A DNA stretch of 35,493 bases, taken from an uncultured Spirochaetales bacterium (GTDB lineage: Bacteria; Spirochaetota; Spirochaetia; CAKZLE01). The position numbers and the translations under genes were made by a program. The DNA lies in contig CAZLZY010000001.1 in assembly GCA_964564075.1 (NCBI GenBank), forward strand, positions 1 to 35,493. The letters are read 5' to 3'. The notes below the pieces were generated by a model that was not told the DNA's origin, did not search any database, and saw only the letters and a list, made by a program, of their open reading frames with translations. Shown here one piece after another: positions 2,734 to 21,082 of this stretch (its first letter is position 1; each line of letters begins with the position of its first letter).

Positions 2734-3747
2734 ATGAGTTCTGTGAAAGTGTTCTTTGCAAAAGAGTTTGACCCTTGGCTGAATCTAGCTACAGAGGATT
2801 GGCTCTATCATGATATGGATCCTTCTCAGAACGTACTATTTCTCTGGAGAAATAGCCCAACGGTCGTGATCGGTCGCTACCAGAACCCTTGGCAGGAGTG
2901 TAATCTTGATCAGATGGAATTTGATGGGGTAAAACTCGCAAGACGTCAGAGTGGTGGTGGTGCAGTATACCAGGATCTAGGGAACACGAACTTCACCTTC
3001 ATGTCTAGCAGAGCTGAATACAGTAAAGAACGTAACAACAGTATCATCATCAATGCCTTGAAGAACCTCGGTATTGACGCGACAGCGTCAGGAAGGAACG
3101 ACCTGATCGTCGATGAGAGAAAGTTCTCTGGAAGTGCCTTCAAACTCTCCAAGGATCGAGCATTTCATCATGGGACTATGCTCATCAATGCTGATATGAC
3201 TCGATTAGGCGAATATCTTACCCCTGATAAAGACAAGCTGAAAGCAAAAGGTATCAAATCTGTTAAATCACGAGTGACGAACCTTATCGAATATAAACCT
3301 GATATAACCCATGAAGTGCTTATGCCTCAGATCATCGAGGAGTTCTTCAAGACCTATGGACAGAGATGTGAGATCGAGGAACTCTCCTATGAGACGATCA
3401 CCGAGATCCCCCATCTTACCTCCTACTATGAGAAGATGAAAGATTGGGAATGGAGATTCGGGAAGACTCCTGAGTTCGAGTATGAGATCTCCCATCGTTT
3501 CGCTTGGGGAAAGATGAGTTTTCATTTTGATACCAAACACGGGAAGATAGAAGAGGTCCATATCTATTCAGATTCTCTCGTACCAGATATGGTAGAAGCC
3601 ATGATGAGTTCGCTACATGGGATCAGATTCAATCATCAGGACATTCGTAAAGCTCTAGCCGAGGTGTCAGAAAATATGAGTGAACATGCAGATAAGATCA
3701 ATGAGTGCTCAGCATTCCTACTCGAGGCGATCAGCTCTCTTTCTTGA
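2734..3747 (+). CDS. lplA: Lipoate-protein ligase A
   Basis: 337 aa, colinear with E. coli LplA: FDPWLNLATEDWL, LFLWRN.PTVVIGRYQNPWQECN, ARRQSGGGAVYQDLGNTNFTF, RKFSGSAFK, AFHHGTMLINAD, KGIKSVKSRVTNL. RBS GGAGAGGAAG precedes the ATG. Confidence 0.92.
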   Translation: MSSVKVFFAKEFDPWLNLATEDWLYHDMDPSQNVLFLWRNSPTVVIGRYQNPWQECNLDQMEFDGVKLARRQSGGGAVYQDLGNTNFTFMSSRAEYSKERNNSIIINALKNLGIDATASGRNDLIVDERKFSGSAFKLSKDRAFHHGTMLINADMTRLGEYLTPDKDKLKAKGIKSVKSRVTNLIEYKPDITHEVLMPQIIEEFFKTYGQRCEIEELSYETITEIPHLTSYYEKMKDWEWRFGKTPEFEYEISHRFAWGKMSFHFDTKHGKIEEVHIYSDSLVPDMVEAMMSSLHGIRFNHQDIRKALAEVSENMSEHADKINECSAFLLEAISSLS

Positions 3748-7796: not shown

Positions 7797-8321
7797 ATGA
7801 ATTCTGCAGAAAAAAAAACCAAGCCACCGGCCGAAAGACAATTCTCTATCGAAGAGCATGTTGTCTACCCTCTTCAAGGGGTTGGTCTAGTCCAAGATAT
7901 CCAAAGTAAGGCATTTAAGAATAAAGAGATTCTCTATTACATCATCTATCTTGATATCTCAGACATGACAGTTATGATTCCCGTTGATAAAGCTTATGAG
8001 CTGGGGATTCGCGCTATAGTAAAACCGAAAGAAGCGAAGGCTGCTCTTGAGACTATCACAAGCACTTATGAGCCGGTAACTATCGATTGGAAGATGCGAT
8101 ACCAGATGAATCTAGACCTCCTCAAGGAAGGTACCGTGACATCTATCGCTCATGTTGTTCAAACACTATACCATAGAAGCAAGATCAAAGAACTTCCTGT
8201 TCAGGAGAGAAAACTCTTTGATAGTGCGATGAAGATCCTGATTGATGAGATCTCCTTCTCTCTTGAGAAACCAAAGAAAGAAGTCGAGAAGATGGTCTTC
8301 ATGCGGTTAGAAGCAGAGTAA
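7797..8321 (+). CDS. carD: CarD/CdnL-family RNA-polymerase-binding transcription regulator
   Basis: 174 aa. The N-terminal CarD_CdnL_TRCF-like segment is FSIEEHVVYPLQGVGLVQDI. The carD-ispD-ispF synteny is the same as in mycobacteria and other bacteria. Confidence 0.85.
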   Translation: MNSAEKKTKPPAERQFSIEEHVVYPLQGVGLVQDIQSKAFKNKEILYYIIYLDISDMTVMIPVDKAYELGIRAIVKPKEAKAALETITSTYEPVTIDWKMRYQMNLDLLKEGTVTSIAHVVQTLYHRSKIKELPVQERKLFDSAMKILIDEISFSLEKPKKEVEKMVFMRLEAE

Positions 8322-16205: not shown

Positions 16206-18629
16206 TCACACCTTAAGGGGAAATCCTGCCTTCTTTAGCGTAGCTACTACGTTATCCTCCGCCTCTCTTAATACCTCTGAGGTCAGCGTCTTTTCACGAT
16301 CTAGGAAGATAGTCCGGACTGTTACCGCTTTCTGCTCTTCGCTCATATTGAACACATCCAAGATCTTCACACTTTCCGCCTCTTTGACCTTAAGCTTGTT
16401 CATTACTTTCAGAATGTCACCCACAGGAGTATGGGCATCAGTAACGACAGTACAGTCGAATTTACTAGAGGGGAACTTTGGCGGTGCAGTATACTTGGTT
16501 TTATCCTTGATATCCCGATCCATGAAATCGGTAATATCCAAGATTGCCAAGGCCACGTTGCCTTTGATCTTGAACTGACGTGTGATGATGGGATGAACCG
16601 TATTCACTATTCCGCAGTTTTTGCCCATCACCCTGATGTTAAGATATTCATGAGGATGAACACCTGGCCATTCCTTAGGCATTATAGGGTTGGGATATTT
16701 CTCATTGGCAGGTTCGAACTGAGCATTCAGATTCAGAAAACTCATCAGAGGTTTCACTACGTTCAGCAGAGCTGAAAAGGGAGATTCCCCTTTGTCAAAA
16801 AAGATCACACCCAGCTGATACCGGTCTTTACTGTACTCCTCTCCATCAATACTCTCATAAGATCTGCCCAACTCAAAGAACCGGAAAGAGCTTAAGTTCT
16901 TCTGATTCTGAGCGGTCTTTTCCAACAGGGTCGGCACCATACTAGGCCGCATACGGCTCAGTTCTGGTGCGAGGGCATTCACGAGGGTAAGCTTCTCATT
17001 TCGAACCGGCCAGCTAGCCTGATCGAGCAGTTTCTCACCAATCATCGGATACGTCATAACCTCTAGGGCTTGACCATGGAAGACCATATAATCCTGAATC
17101 TTCCTCTGCATCTGCTTGGCTTCGGAAAGCCTGGTCGTCTTGGCCAGATTTATCGGAGAGACGGGCGTAATATTGTCAAAACCGATAATCCGTCCAATCT
17201 CTTCAATGATATCCGCTTCAAACTCAATGTCTTTAGTAGCTCGATAACTAGGGACGTCTACCGTGAGGTTATCTCCGTCAACGCCTACCTTGAAATCTAA
17301 TGATTTTAGGATCTCTACGATCCGTTCTGACGAAACATACGTTCCCAGAACACGAGAGATCTTAGCAGCAGAACAGGTGATCTTTAATTCGGGAGTGGGT
17401 TTTAACGCAACTTCCTGCATAAAACCTACCACGACAGCTTCTGGACAGCTCTCTTTGACTAGTTCAACCAACCTCAAGATAGTCTGCTCCAAGAGATTTG
17501 TATCCAGACTCTTTTCGTAGCGCTGCGAGGCGTCGGTTCGAAGCCCCAGACGAACACTGGTCTTACGGATCTCTGAATCCCTCCAGTTGGCCGCCTCCAG
17601 GAAGATTCGGTTGGTGCTATCCTTGACAGACGAGTCCAGACCACCCATGATACCGCCGATACCGGACACACGGTCCTTATCGCAGACCATGGTGTCTGAA
17701 GCGATCATACTCCGCTCCTGACCGTCGAGGGTAACAAAAACTCCATTCTCACCCATGCGACGGACGATGATCTCTCCGCCCTTAACAGTGTCCCGATCGT
17801 ATATATGATTGGGCATCCCTGTTTCCAGCATAACGTAATTGGAAATATCCACAATATTGTTGATTGGCCGCATACCGCAGGTGATCAGCCGGTCCTGCAT
17901 CCACTGGGGGCTAGGTTTGACAGTCACCTTATCCATAGAGATCCCCGTGAATCCCAGACAGCTGGAGTCTTTATCCACCGTTATAGTCACAGGAGGCTTA
18001 TCTTCGGTGTAGAGAGCCCTCAGACTTTTTTTCCACTCCTCGGAGAATACGTCCTTCAGTGGCTTTCCGAATACGGCAGCGAACTCCCGGGCCATACCAT
18101 AGTGTCCCCATAGATCAGGCCTATGGGTGATTGATTTATTATCTATATCGAAGACAATGTCACAGGCTACCCCAAGGTGTTCGGCTAGGCTCATACCTAC
18201 CACAGCATCATCGGCTAAGAGCATCAGCCCCTCATGGGCTTCACCTAGTCCCAGTTCATCCTCAGCACAGAGCATACCCTCACTAGCCACACCCCGGATC
18301 TTTTTAGGAACCAGAGTAAAACCTCCCGGAAGGGTCGTTCCGATACAGGCAAAAGGCACCTTCTTACCCACTTCCACATGGGAAGCCCCACAGACGACCC
18401 GTTCTTCCCCGTCACCGGTATTGAAGGTAACAAGATTCAGCCTATCCGCGTCGGGATGCTTTTCGATCCCAGTGATCTCAACCACCTTGACAGCTTTCAG
18501 ATGTTCGCCAGTAGTCTGCACCTCCTCAACCTCACAAGTGGCCAAGGTAAACCGGGTTCCTAGCTCCTGGAGAGTGATATCTTCAGGTAGATCCACGTAG
18601 TCTTTTATCCAATTTATGCTAATATTCAT
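16206..18629 (-). CDS. pheT: Phenylalanine--tRNA ligase beta subunit (bacterial long form)
   Basis: 807 aa. MNISINWIKDYV is followed by the tRNA-binding domain (GIEKHPDADRL), B3/4, B5 and a C-terminal FDX-ACB-like domain. GGGAG RBS. Confidence 0.93.
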   Translation of the reverse strand: MNISINWIKDYVDLPEDITLQELGTRFTLATCEVEEVQTTGEHLKAVKVVEITGIEKHPDADRLNLVTFNTGDGEERVVCGASHVEVGKKVPFACIGTTLPGGFTLVPKKIRGVASEGMLCAEDELGLGEAHEGLMLLADDAVVGMSLAEHLGVACDIVFDIDNKSITHRPDLWGHYGMAREFAAVFGKPLKDVFSEEWKKSLRALYTEDKPPVTITVDKDSSCLGFTGISMDKVTVKPSPQWMQDRLITCGMRPINNIVDISNYVMLETGMPNHIYDRDTVKGGEIIVRRMGENGVFVTLDGQERSMIASDTMVCDKDRVSGIGGIMGGLDSSVKDSTNRIFLEAANWRDSEIRKTSVRLGLRTDASQRYEKSLDTNLLEQTILRLVELVKESCPEAVVVGFMQEVALKPTPELKITCSAAKISRVLGTYVSSERIVEILKSLDFKVGVDGDNLTVDVPSYRATKDIEFEADIIEEIGRIIGFDNITPVSPINLAKTTRLSEAKQMQRKIQDYMVFHGQALEVMTYPMIGEKLLDQASWPVRNEKLTLVNALAPELSRMRPSMVPTLLEKTAQNQKNLSSFRFFELGRSYESIDGEEYSKDRYQLGVIFFDKGESPFSALLNVVKPLMSFLNLNAQFEPANEKYPNPIMPKEWPGVHPHEYLNIRVMGKNCGIVNTVHPIITRQFKIKGNVALAILDITDFMDRDIKDKTKYTAPPKFPSSKFDCTVVTDAHTPVGDILKVMNKLKVKEAESVKILDVFNMSEEQKAVTVRTIFLDREKTLTSEVLREAEDNVVATLKKAGFPLKV

Positions 18630-18641
18630 CTTAATCTCCCT

Positions 18642-19685
18642 CTAGTAAGCCTTGAACTGTTCAACGAACCGTAGATCCCCGCTATGTAGATGGCGGATAT
18701 CATCTATGTGATAGCGCATCATAACAAGCCGGTCCAAACCCAGGCCGAAGGCAAAACCATTCCACTGTTCAGGGTCGATCCCCCCGGAACGTAGAACATT
18801 TGGATGAACCATACCGCAGGGTAGAAGCTCAACCCAGCCGGACTGCTTACAAACCTTGCAGCCCTTACCTCCGCAGATCAAACATTCAATATCCAGCTCA
18901 AAACCGGGCTCCACGAAGGGGAAGAATCCCGGCCGCAGACGCACTTTCACATCCCGTCTGAATATTTCTGAAAGGAGAGTCTTCATGAAGTAGATAAGGT
19001 TGGCAACGGAAATATCCTTGCCCACCATCATTCCCTCTAGCTGATGGAAAGCCATCTCATGGCTCGCATCGGTGGATTCGCAACGGAAGACCTTTCCCGG
19101 TCCAACAAACTTGAACGGAGGCTCATGTGCTTCCATTCCGCGAACCTGAATACAGGACGTGTGAGTCCTCAAGAGGTGTTCCATATCGGTAAACCAGAAG
19201 GTGTCCTGCATATCCCGCGCCGGATGGGTAGCGGGAATATTCAAAGCCTCGAAGTTGTGAAAATCGTCCTCGATATGGGGGCCATCCAGAATATCAAATC
19301 CCATAGAGGTGAAAATATCTTCAATCTCCCGTTGGATAAGCGTCACCGGATGAAATCCAGAGGACTGCATTCCCTTAACCCTAACATCGTCTGTCAATGT
19401 CACATCCTGCCAGCTTTTCTTGAGTTGGGCATTTATCTCGTCCATCTCGATATTGGCAAGCTGCTTCACCAGAGATTCCTGAATCTCCTGCTTGAACTCG
19501 TTAGCTGCCGCACCGATACTCTTTTTCACATCTGTCGTAGCCTCTCTCATCCCCTTAAGGATCTCGTTCAGCTTTCCCTTCTTCCCCAGATAATCAGCCT
19601 TGAACTTGGCCAAACTGTTCTTATCCTTCAGGTCCTCCACGGACTCTCGAAATTCTTTCTTCAGCTCTTCCAGCTTTTGCAGCAT
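18642..19685 (-). CDS. pheS: Phenylalanine--tRNA ligase alpha subunit
   Basis: 347 aa, colinear with bacterial PheS: HPVT, FEALNIPATHPARDMQDTFW, LLRTHTS, FHQLEGM, RPGFFPFVEPG, GMVHPNVL, FAFGLGLDRL. It has a CxxC-x4-CxxC insertion (CLICGGKGCKVC), as in Firmicute-type PheS. AAGGAG RBS. Confidence 0.93.
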   Translation of the reverse strand: MLQKLEELKKEFRESVEDLKDKNSLAKFKADYLGKKGKLNEILKGMREATTDVKKSIGAAANEFKQEIQESLVKQLANIEMDEINAQLKKSWQDVTLTDDVRVKGMQSSGFHPVTLIQREIEDIFTSMGFDILDGPHIEDDFHNFEALNIPATHPARDMQDTFWFTDMEHLLRTHTSCIQVRGMEAHEPPFKFVGPGKVFRCESTDASHEMAFHQLEGMMVGKDISVANLIYFMKTLLSEIFRRDVKVRLRPGFFPFVEPGFELDIECLICGGKGCKVCKQSGWVELLPCGMVHPNVLRSGGIDPEQWNGFAFGLGLDRLVMMRYHIDDIRHLHSGDLRFVEQFKAY

Positions 19686-19702
19686 GATCTACTCCTTAGC
19701 AT

Positions 19703-19727
19703 AAAAAAAACTCCCCTTCAGGGAGTC
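19703..19727 (-). terminator. Intrinsic terminator in the pheS leader (attenuator terminator)
   Basis: The minus-strand RNA is GACUCCC-UGAAG-GGGAGUU (6 Watson-Crick pairs plus 1 G.U) running into a U8 tract. It ends 17 nt upstream of the pheS AUG. Confidence 0.6.
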
Positions 19728-19758
19728 AATTGTTCATTTTTACAAACACAGGACTCCC

Positions 19759-19821
19759 TTAACAACCTTTCATAAAAAATAAAAAAGAGAACAAGTTAAA
19801 AAAGAAGTATTTCCCTGTCAT
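19759..19821 (-). CDS. Candidate pheST leader peptide, MTGKYFFFNLFSFLFFMKGC (7 Phe in 20 codons)
   Basis: The ATG at 19821 lies 10 nt after a TATAAT box (no SD, so the 5' UTR would be about 3-5 nt). The Phe codons are UUC UUU UUU, UUC, UUU, UUU UUU. The stop UAA (19761-19759) abuts the antiterminator strand AGGGAGUC. Confidence 0.5.
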   Translation of the reverse strand: MTGKYFFFNLFSFLFFMKGC

Positions 19822-19831
19822 AATATCAAAT

Positions 19832-19859
19832 ATTATAGAGAAAAAAGCGAATATGTCAA
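19832..19859 (-). promoter_or_regulatory. Near-consensus sigma70 promoter of the pheST leader
   Basis: Minus strand: TTGACA (19859-19854), 16-nt spacer, TATAAT (19837-19832). Confidence 0.6.
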
Positions 19860-20041
19860 TTCCCGAAAAAGAATAGCTCATCTATTTTTCTTGAGTTCTA
19901 CTCCCTTTTGCACTATGAGTTTTTCATCTACTGTCTCTTATAACATCACTGTGGGGTTTGTATTGGATCTAGTCATGCGAAAAACTGACATAAGGAGACC
20001 TTTATCAAGTATATCTTTCATTCTTTATCTACATGATCGAT

Positions 20042-20049
20042 CCCCCCCC
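20042..20049. repeat. C8 homopolymer in apparently non-coding DNA
   Basis: GATCGATCCCCCCCCGGTG. This is the only long G/C homopolymer I noticed in the window. Confidence 0.8.
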
Positions 20050-20357
20050 GGTGTAGAACGAAGAAGAGAATTACTAGATATAACACCAGTATTCGGCAGT
20101 TACTCACTCTGATGAACGGAGAAGCTAAATGAACACAGTGAATCCACTATATACTTGATAAAACAGACTCTTTCATGGAGTTCTTTGCCTTATCACCGAT
20201 CTCATCGATCCAGAGGAGATTCGGTTGATGTCTATTCACAGCAGCAAAACTGATTTCTACGAAAGTACCCATAATACCATTGATTCTTCATTACTATGTT
20301 TTTACACCAAAATAGGTTATAATCAAAAAAATGATCACCGATTACGAGGAGCAAGTC

Positions 20358-20699
20358 ATGAGTCATGAATTGACAGAGTTTACACTACAGGTGATAACTC
20401 TCATAAAACAGATCCCAAAAGGACGAGTTGCAACCTATGGTCAGATCGCACAGCTCGCAGGATCACCTAAAGGTGCAAGACAGGTCGTTCGTCTACTTCA
20501 CTCCTCCTCTCATACTCGTGATCTCCCTTGGCACCGAGTCATCAACAAACAGGGTCATATCGCTATGGCATCTGGGCAAGGACTCGAAGAACAGGCATCA
20601 CTCCTACAATCTGAAGGGGTCCTCGTCGATACGGAGGGTAATGTCAACCTAGGCGCATATCTCTACGACTTCAGTGGTCCACGTAACTTATTCACATAG
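20358..20699 (+). CDS. atl: Alkyltransferase-like protein (MGMT/Ogt DNA-binding domain, active-site Cys replaced by Trp)
   Basis: About 113 aa counted from MSHELTEF, with GAGGAG 6 nt upstream of the ATG at 20358. It has the MGMT fold motifs IPKGRVATYGQIA and KGARQV. The active-site box reads PWHRV instead of PCHRV, which is the ATL signature. Confidence 0.8.
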   Translation: MSHELTEFTLQVITLIKQIPKGRVATYGQIAQLAGSPKGARQVVRLLHSSSHTRDLPWHRVINKQGHIAMASGQGLEEQASLLQSEGVLVDTEGNVNLGAYLYDFSGPRNLFT

Positions 20700-21043
20700 G
20701 GCATACCAGAGCTTCTTCTCACTAACTACTGGACACCTGCACATCTGTTGCAGTTTGTGGTACGTTCTGCAACACAATATCAATTTATCAAGTATTTACC
20801 TATTTATCCTCCTCTTTGTGTTGCATATCAACAACAAAATGAAGTATAACTTGCCTATAATCAGAGATATACCTCCCTGAGGTGTATCGAGAGAAATCAA
20901 GAGGTTTACAAATTGAATCGCTCGATCTCTTTACATAAGAAACTATCAGATAACGTAGGAATCCCCTGTTTTTTGTGGGATCAACTGCATGCGGCCATAG
21001 CAATAAGTCTAGAGCTCATGCAGCGTACGTATACACCTGTATC

Positions 21044-21082
21044 AAACAGACCCCGGAATAACTCCGGGGTCTGTTTGTTTCT
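21044..21082 (+). terminator. Strong intrinsic terminator-like hairpin 60 nt upstream of purL
   Basis: AAACAGACCCCGG (21044-21056) pairs perfectly with CCGGGGTCTGTTT (21064-21076), giving 13-14 bp around a 5-7 nt loop, followed by GTTTCT. No credible plus-strand CDS lies in the preceding ~340 nt. Confidence 0.55.

Follow-up and report, generated by a model that had tools for sequence, protein, structure and literature searches.

The window analysed here, the whole 35,493-nucleotide (nt) stretch of contig CAZLZY010000001.1 from an uncultured Spirochaetales bacterium, carries on its minus strand the genes for both subunits of phenylalanyl-tRNA synthetase. Our interest lay in the short region upstream of the first of these genes, where an earlier note, made from the letters alone, had proposed a phenylalanine (Phe) leader-peptide attenuator. 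pheS (18642-19685, minus strand) encodes the alpha subunit of 347 amino acids (aa), with the Pfam domains tRNA-synt_2d (9e-92) and Phe_tRNA-synt_N, and pheT (16206-18629, minus strand) encodes the beta subunit of 807 aa, with B3_4, B5, tRNA_synthFbeta, tRNA_bind and FDX-ACB. The start of pheT lies only 12 nt downstream of pheS, and because this gap is so narrow the two genes presumably form a single operon. The pheST operon stands alone, and its neighbour is a divergent MGMT/Ogt-like gene.

All elements of the leader are read on the minus strand (region 19600-20000). Where a near-consensus promoter, TTGACA-N16-TATAAT, had been claimed, we find a 12/12 match: the -35 hexamer TTGACA lies at 19859-19854, a position kept in the related loci L001-L003, and after a spacer of 16 nt the -10 hexamer TATAAT follows at 19837-19832, with 10 nt between it and the leader ATG. 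The leader open reading frame (ORF) occupies 19821-19759, with its TAA stop at 19761-19759. It comprises 20 codons plus the stop (ATG ACA GGG AAA TAC TTC TTT TTT AAC TTG TTC TCT TTT TTA TTT TTT ATG AAA GGT TGT TAA), has no Shine-Dalgarno (SD) sequence and gives the product MTGKYFFFNLFSFLFFMKGC. Seven of the 20 codons specify Phe (2 TTC and 5 TTT), as had been noted before, and these make up a regulatory run spanning codons 6-16 (19806-19774; TTC TTT TTT .. TTC .. TTT .. TTT TTT). The leader stop runs into AGGGAGUC (19759-19752), the 5' strand of the antiterminator (segment 2), whose first base is the last base of the stop codon and which is invariant across the window, L001-L003 and L005. This strand shows perfect complementarity over 8 bp to GACUCCCU (19727-19720), the shared segment 3, which is antiterminator 3' strand and terminator 5' arm in one. 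Between them, and enclosed by the antiterminator helix, is a small inner hairpin (UGUUUGU-AAAA-AUGAACA, 19748-19731), which probably acts as a spacer, because its sequence is not kept in L002, L003 and L005.

Downstream of segment 3, the terminator loop GAA, the 3' arm GGGGAGUU (segment 4) and a run of eight U residues (U8) extend over 19719-19703, with U8 itself at 19710-19703. The terminator hairpin GACUCCCU-GAA-GGGGAGUU (19727-19709) has 8 pairs and an energy of -10.3 kcal/mol, and its U run is 17 nt from the pheS ATG (19685), again as the earlier note had described. The pheS SD, AAGGAG (19697-19692), comes after the terminator, which leaves it free, and 73 nt separate the leader stop from the pheS ATG. 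Translational sequestration of the pheS SD was ruled out, as this sequence sits outside the hairpin. All four elements listed in the earlier note are thus present; what it had missed is a predicted pairing of the Phe segment with the antiterminator 5' strand. In a constrained fold of the window alone, segment 1 (19818-19801), the predicted anti-antiterminator strand, pairs through ACUUCUUU (19808-19801) with AAGGGAGU (19760-19753) and through a second helix of ACAGG (19818-19814) with CCUGU (19752-19748). With this pairing included, the predicted 1:2 / 2:3 / 3:4 layout of the window is that of enterobacterial attenuators.

The window holds four features of the ribosome-mediated leader-peptide attenuators (trp/his/phe class), namely an ORF rich in cognate codons, an intrinsic terminator, a mutually exclusive antiterminator and a suitable stop/stall geometry. 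The last of these was examined by folding the nascent RNA as it would stand before the terminator 3' arm is made, assuming that the ribosome protects about 12 nt 3' of its A-site codon. We used the z-score of the antiterminator energy as the measure, given that counting sequestered arm bases discriminated poorly (shuffled sequences pair too). When the ribosome is placed where the Phe run ends, on its final codon, the exposed RNA of the window sequesters 8/8 bases of the terminator 5' arm in a fold of -19.0 kcal/mol (z = -5.6), an energy reached by 0/500 shuffles; from that codon to the start of the antiterminator strand the distance is 17 nt. Moving the ribosome to the stop codon lowers the sequestered arm bases to 0-4 over the loci folded, so that the terminator can form. 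The distinction is seen across 24 loci, in which the stalled state sequesters most of the terminator 5' arm and the at-stop state does not, with a mean z of -2.5 for the antiterminator energy. In the constrained fold of the window, the terminated conformer made with the predicted 1:2 pairing is near isoenergetic with the antiterminated one (-29.3 kcal/mol vs -29.6 kcal/mol). The proposal that the shared arm can form either structure is borne out by these folds and by the covariation described below, and the predicted stalled and at-stop states fit the suggestion that ribosome position chooses between them.

The earlier note had set the genes against a Firmicute-type background in which pheST would normally be controlled by a T-box. 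PheS is 94% identical to that of L001, 87% to that of L002 and 86% to that of L003, all metagenome-assembled genomes (MAGs) of Spirochaetia, and 67-76% identical to those of Oceanispirochaeta and others. L001 is, moreover, syntenic with the window across 7 kb at a DNA identity of 80-83%; L002 and L003 resemble the window at the DNA level only as far as the -35 box. A Firmicute host is ruled out by these best relatives; PheS and the synteny with L001 place the host in Spirochaetia, and since it is a spirochaete the expectation of a T-box does not apply.

Conservation was assessed in the 80 closest genome pheS loci, with 200 shuffles for each genome locus, and in a metagenome scan. A Phe-rich leader ORF (5-11 Phe) is found upstream of pheS in about 24 of the 80 loci, comprising 23 Spirochaetia and Desulfopila, and the observed Phe count is reached by 0/200 shuffles at each of them. 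Five further positives from metagenomes (L082, L083, L084, L093 and L098), all outside the window's subfamily, bring the total to about 29 loci. In the window itself, 0/200 shuffles of the 330 nt upstream of pheS match the clustered Phe count of the ORF. No Phe leader beyond shuffle level was present in the Bacteriovoracaceae, Fibrobacter or other loci of the 80-locus set. All positive loci have a strong GC-rich hairpin and then 6-10 U between leader stop and pheS, and in the subfamilies other than that of the window the terminator lies 16-180 nt from the gene. Five subfamilies can be recognised from their peptides: A, to which the window belongs, has MTGK..F-run..MKGC (window and L001-L003, with a different N-terminus in Desulfopila L005); B has M.KP..F-run..GETPGLS; C has MENRS.FFSFFFFF..EG.RFSLK; D has MKS..FAFTSFSFFSFFFFF; and E has MTGK..F-run..TGRKNSGFS. 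Phe-rich leader ORFs opening with MTGK occur in L001-L003, L069 and L077. From A to E the hairpin sequences diverge while the architecture is constant, which is what selection on mechanism, rather than on sequence, should give.

The earlier note had cautioned that a T-rich region inflates the number of UUU codons by chance, and the T content of the region is indeed 36%. Beyond the shuffles just described, this caution is answered by the codon frame. Over 29 leaders, Phe codons number 249 in the leader frame vs 127 and 146 in the other two, and TTC is found 66 times in the leader frame vs 2 and 17 times in the others. Within the Phe cores, C occurs 3, 19 and 102 times at codon positions 1, 2 and 3, respectively, so that where a T run is broken, the change is in the great majority of cases a synonymous one between TTT and TTC in a single frame. 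Among the close relatives only one indel is seen, in L002, and it is 3 nt long.

The two alternative helices were also examined for compensatory change. In subfamily A, A19726 is replaced by G in L002, L003 and L005, matched by a U to C change in the terminator 3' arm, and this G still forms a G.U pair with the invariant antiterminator strand. The MAFFT alignment of this subfamily left the terminator 3' arms out of register, and those pairs were read by eye. Subfamily C offers more: pairing in its antiterminator reaches 89.5%, with both partners altered in 5 pairs, compared with 35-51% paired and 0-2 both-side changes in controls slid by 1-3 columns, and 0/500 column shuffles match the observed values; its terminator is 96% paired. 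For subfamily B, the RNAalifold consensus of the RNA made up to the terminator 3' arm has a conserved GAAC-N4-GUUC hairpin flanked by two helices, in which the final codons of the leader pair with the 5' arm of the terminator. Aligning the relatives, which had been put forward as a check on the original proposal, has thus shown a Phe run kept in about 29 loci and compensatory changes in subfamilies A and C.

Several loci in or near the positive set deserve separate mention. The pheS genes of two Desulfobulbales, Desulfopila and Desulfogranum, and of a metagenome contig (L004:215-385, L005:2838-3003 and L081:258-428) are 82-83% identical to that of the window and closer to it than most spirochaete pheS genes are. 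Desulfopila retains all three parts (Phe leader, antiterminator and terminator); in Desulfogranum and L081 the terminator remains, but the AGGGAGUC strand is gone and so are most of the Phe codons. From these sequences it looks as though pheST and its attenuator were horizontally transferred into Desulfobulbales and are decaying in some recipients. In L017, L018 and L020, spirochaete loci without the leader, the last ~120 nt before pheS (~2880-3000) hold another conserved motif, ..TCCTTG..CTATAAAAGGTATRAATTTARMCTTATA.., with a small AAGGT/ACCTT inverted repeat, which may be a different control region for the pheST operon. Finally, a Chitinivibrionia MAG (L013:240-300) and an identical metagenome contig (L090:257-317) have a TTG-initiated ORF, MRYEKFAFFVNFFEKFIDF, with 6 Phe upstream of pheS and a terminator-like hairpin further downstream; the promoter-abutting arrangement is not present. 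L013 is a doubtful extra positive, and the pair may represent an independent Phe leader outside Spirochaetia.

The way in which translation of the leader might begin is closely tied to its promoter. Among the 25 spirochaete loci with sufficient upstream sequence, 24 have a sigma-70-type promoter matching the consensus at 10-12 of 12 positions, whose -10 hexamer is followed by the leader ATG after 8-12 nt. This spacing is exactly 10 nt in 16 of the 25, which is the mode, and L021, which seems at first to depart from the pattern, has another ATG upstream in the same frame at 10 nt (MENMSRFF...). At one mismatch or fewer the window has no promoter match besides the 12/12 one; taken by itself, such a match is not significant (0.34 expected, with at least one in 26/100 shuffles). 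No SD precedes the leader ATG in any of the 25 loci other than a lone GGAG in L024; an SD is present at 17 of 27 ordinary genes of the window, including pheS and pheT. If transcription is assumed to start 6-9 nt past the -10 hexamer, the predicted start would fall at ~19825-19823 and the 5' untranslated region (UTR) would be about 2-4 nt long. The promoter abuts the leader ATG and there is no SD, so the leader ORF is probably near-leaderless, and the SD-less, near-leaderless AUG of the earlier note is consistent with the promoter position across these loci.

Two other genes of the window bear on whether such initiation is within the organism's capabilities. The ORF at 7797-8321 (plus strand) is SD-less and is preceded by TTGACT-17-TATAGT, with the -10-like hexamer ending 6-7 nt before the ATG, and the MGMT/Ogt-like gene at 20331-20699 (plus strand) is likewise SD-less, with a TATAAT ending 6-7 nt before its ATG. 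The background frequency of a promoter matching at 9 or more of 12 positions at 6-7 nt from an ATG is ~1%. Both look like candidate strictly leaderless genes, and for this reason we judge that the organism is probably able to initiate without an SD.

The working of the element that we infer, from the transcription start and translation of the ORF to termination, read-through and the response to Phe, would be as follows. Transcription would begin at the sigma-70-type promoter a few nt before the leader AUG, and a ribosome would initiate on the near-leaderless ORF without an SD. With Phe-tRNA in good supply, it would reach the UAA and cover AGGGAGUC, leaving GACUCCCU to pair with GGGGAGUU and causing termination at U8, 17 nt before pheS. 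When Phe-tRNA is scarce, a stall in the 7-Phe run (codons 6-16) would break the 1:2 pairing and expose AGGGAGUC, which would take up GACUCCCU once made (-19 vs -10 kcal/mol), such that no terminator forms and RNA polymerase reads through into pheST. Without a ribosome, the 1:2 pairing would favour termination.

Much of this recalls the E. coli pheM-pheST attenuator, to which the earlier note had likened the element. The two share the same operon, pheS-pheT, and, counting the predicted segment 1 of the window, the same four-segment logic. pheM is also a short ORF with clustered Phe codons (5 Phe vs 7/20 in the window), and its GGAGGCU after the stop is complementary to the terminator arm AGCCUCC, which is followed by a U run, much as in the window. 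There are clear differences too, and homology between the two is not detectable. pheM lies downstream of rplT in an infC-rpmI-rplT-pheMST cluster, whereas the operon in the window sits beside a divergent Ogt-like gene; the 5' UTR of pheM, as we read its sequence, measures ~30 nt and includes an SD-like AAGG, whereas in the window promoter and ATG abut and an SD is lacking; the terminator is ~210 nt from pheS in E. coli vs 17 nt in the window; and the two hosts belong to different phyla. The likeness in logic holds, but membership of the pheM family does not. Against the Rfam model of that family, RF01859 Phe_leader, the window scores 21.6 bits (E = 0.6), below the threshold of 55, whereas E. 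coli pheM as a positive control scores 75 bits, and none of 20 positive relatives reaches the gathering threshold. The weak match is probably accounted for by the purine-rich strand that the window shares with pheM, a likeness to be expected if that strand must also pair with UUC/UUU codons.

The remainder of the Rfam scan, which the earlier note had also suggested, was equally negative. No T-box was found at the gathering threshold in the window or in 38 related loci, nor at E <= 10 in 19500-20400, and no Rfam family of any kind reached its gathering threshold in the window or those 38 loci. Matches to mir-1275 and to snoRNAs, seen in E-value mode in the window, were dismissed as noise. The pheS T-box of Firmicutes resembles the present element in the class of gene controlled, in the tRNA-Phe charging signal and in its terminator/antiterminator output, but there uncharged tRNA is sensed through its binding to a structured RNA and not by a translating ribosome. 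The E. coli pheL-pheA leader, like that of the window, has a Phe-codon leader peptide and a competition between terminator and antiterminator; it differs in controlling a biosynthetic gene, in being enterobacterial and in its SD-led initiation.

The earlier note knew of such attenuators only in gamma-proteobacteria, which is too narrow a view. The pheST attenuator has been placed in gamma-proteobacteria, and synthetase-gene attenuators are documented in Streptomyces (PMC1262725). In S. lividans, leaderless leader peptides (leuL/trpL/thrL/alaL) precede leuS, trpS, thrS and alaS (PMC8079986), and in mycobacteria leaderless short poly-Cys ORFs act as attenuators (10.1101/834739). A survey from 2010, by whose account leader-peptide systems were then known only in Proteobacteria and Actinobacteria, added Firmicutes hisS (PMC2965389). 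The actinobacterial leaderless attenuators resemble the element described here in having no or almost no 5' UTR, in being SD-less, in preceding synthetase genes in some cases and in their hairpin and U stretch. They come from another phylum and respond to other amino acids, with no pheS case among the S. lividans and mycobacterial examples. Their starts were mapped by RNA-seq, whereas that of the spirochaete is predicted; the 10-nt spacing in spirochaetes implies a UTR of about 3-4 nt and not a 5'-terminal AUG; and the spirochaete codon runs (5-11 Phe) are much longer than theirs. The His leader of hisS paralogues in bacilli is likewise a leader-peptide attenuator on a synthetase gene outside Proteobacteria (PMC2965389), although with another amino acid, in another phylum and with no leaderless arrangement reported. 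We found no description of a spirochaete pheST attenuator in the literature searched, to which older surveys in subscription journals did not belong, so that a prior mention is possible. The element is not mechanistically surprising, being a phylum-level extension with actinobacterial precedent for its near-leaderless start; it is pheM-like in its predicted working, lies outside pheM's Rfam family and apparently represents an undescribed lineage.

Other explanations of these data need to be weighed. One is that the switch is real but is set by something other than a ribosome, such as uncharged tRNA-Phe in the manner of a T-box, a pyrimidine-tract-binding protein, or PheRS itself, in the way that ThrRS binds its own thrS leader. 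The U-rich segment is able to pair with purine-rich strands, and the leader has no SD and is translated only by inference, all of which would suit such a factor. Yet neither a T-box nor another Rfam family was detected in the window or the 38 related loci, and there is no specifier loop or T-box-like conserved sequence. Moreover, the conserved ATG, the frame, the position of the stop relative to the antiterminator and the synonymous TTT/TTC pattern are explained by translation alone, and we regard this alternative as very improbable.

Ranking about equally low is the idea that the leader does sense Phe-tRNA but that its output is Rho-dependent termination, or else translational coupling or reinitiation at pheS. 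A terminator just 17 nt from the pheS ATG invites this thought, and reinitiation effects of leaders on their genes have been proposed (PMC4833913). However, a canonical GC-rich hairpin with 6-10 U is found in all loci, the pheS SD is outside the hairpin, and a leader stop 73 nt from the pheS ATG is beyond the reach of reinitiation. Fainter still is the chance that the ORF is there for its product, a small hydrophobic and Phe-rich peptide with a function of its own (for instance in the membrane), co-transcribed ahead of pheST, the hairpin being its terminator. The ORF is conserved and hydrophobic, and its MTGK N-terminus and PGLS or RFSLK C-termini are kept within subfamilies; between subfamilies, however, the Phe run alone is conserved. 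The codons kept at the C-terminal end fall within strands that pair in the RNA and can thus be explained by constraint at the RNA level, and in every case the ORF is found with pheS and has an overlapping antiterminator behind it. Least credible of all is coincidence, with a chance Phe frame in a T-rich spacer and a hairpin and U run that serve as an ordinary terminator or stabiliser with no switch: the 36% T, the lone and non-significant 12/12 promoter match and a whole leader of ordinary stability would allow it, but it founders on Phe counts reached by 0/200 shuffles, on an ORF, terminator and antiterminator kept in about 29 loci despite sequence divergence, on C falling almost only at codon position 3, on antiterminator covariation, and on the senselessness of terminating transcription constitutively 17 nt ahead of an essential operon with no other promoter.

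We therefore favour a ribosome-mediated leader-peptide transcription attenuator on the pheS-pheT operon of a Spirochaetia bacterium that responds to charged tRNA-Phe, and on the computational evidence set out above we put its probability at roughly 85%. Several points count against this interpretation. The attenuator is known from computational prediction alone. The energy comparison proposed in the earlier note came out in favour of the antiterminator over the terminator, but the 145-nt leader folded as one unit is not unusually stable (z = -1.17), and at several loci of subfamilies B, D and E the antiterminator energy cannot be told apart from that of shuffles. The covariation in subfamily A amounts to one substitution event among five sequences and is thin, since the metagenome scan gave the decayed L081 as its sole new close relative of that subfamily. 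A UTR of ~3-4 nt with no SD is neither canonical nor strictly leaderless, which makes the efficiency of initiation uncertain. Finally, the leader is absent in six spirochaete loci of the set (L017-L020, L026 and L074).

A more speculative extension of the attenuator concerns its start. Throughout Spirochaetia, SD-less initiation on a ~3-nt UTR, with a fixed -10-to-AUG distance of ~10 nt, could be an integral and selected part of the sensor, a suggestion that we offer tentatively and consider somewhat doubtful. Were it true, a first ribosome would be loaded once the AUG emerges from RNA polymerase, and translation would thereby be kept in step with transcription, with neither the loading by an SD nor the timing by a pause hairpin that enterobacterial attenuators use. 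Spirochaetota would then have its first described family of ribosome-mediated attenuators, and leaderless-type leader peptides a case from outside Actinobacteria.

If the attenuator itself is as we propose, classical leader-peptide attenuation would extend to Spirochaetota, a phylum for which we found no described case, and tRNA-Phe control of pheST would have been reached in at least three ways: by the T-box of Firmicutes, by enterobacterial pheM and by the spirochaete element. The five structural subfamilies, with one logic and different hairpins, would provide a clean data set on attenuator evolution, which includes the apparent transfer of pheST and its attenuator into Desulfobulbales and the decay in some recipients. 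The conserved promoter-to-AUG spacing offers a testable case of near-leaderless initiation in regulation outside Actinobacteria. The family is also material for a new Rfam family, and its recognition would correct the annotation of what is now intergenic sequence.

Elsewhere in the window, some minor features were noted. The spacer between the leader promoter and the Ogt-like gene (19860-20330, ~470 nt) is unconserved even in the syntenic L001, the alignment with which breaks between 19887 and 20289, and the only ORF listed in it encodes 73 aa from a TTG start (19891-20112, plus strand). The part of the window from 1128 to 2733 (~1.6 kb) contains no ORF of at least 80 aa on either strand and no Rfam match at the gathering threshold, and positions 1-2000 are the part lowest in GC (0.385 vs 0.42-0.49 elsewhere). 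On the other side of the Ogt-like gene, between it and a purL-like ORF, there is a perfect 15-bp hairpin, CAAACAGACCCCGGA-ATAAC-TCCGGGGTCTGTTTG (21043-21077, plus strand), which lies 64 nt before the purL-like ORF start and has a weak U tail; it could be the terminator of the Ogt-like gene or a bidirectional terminator.

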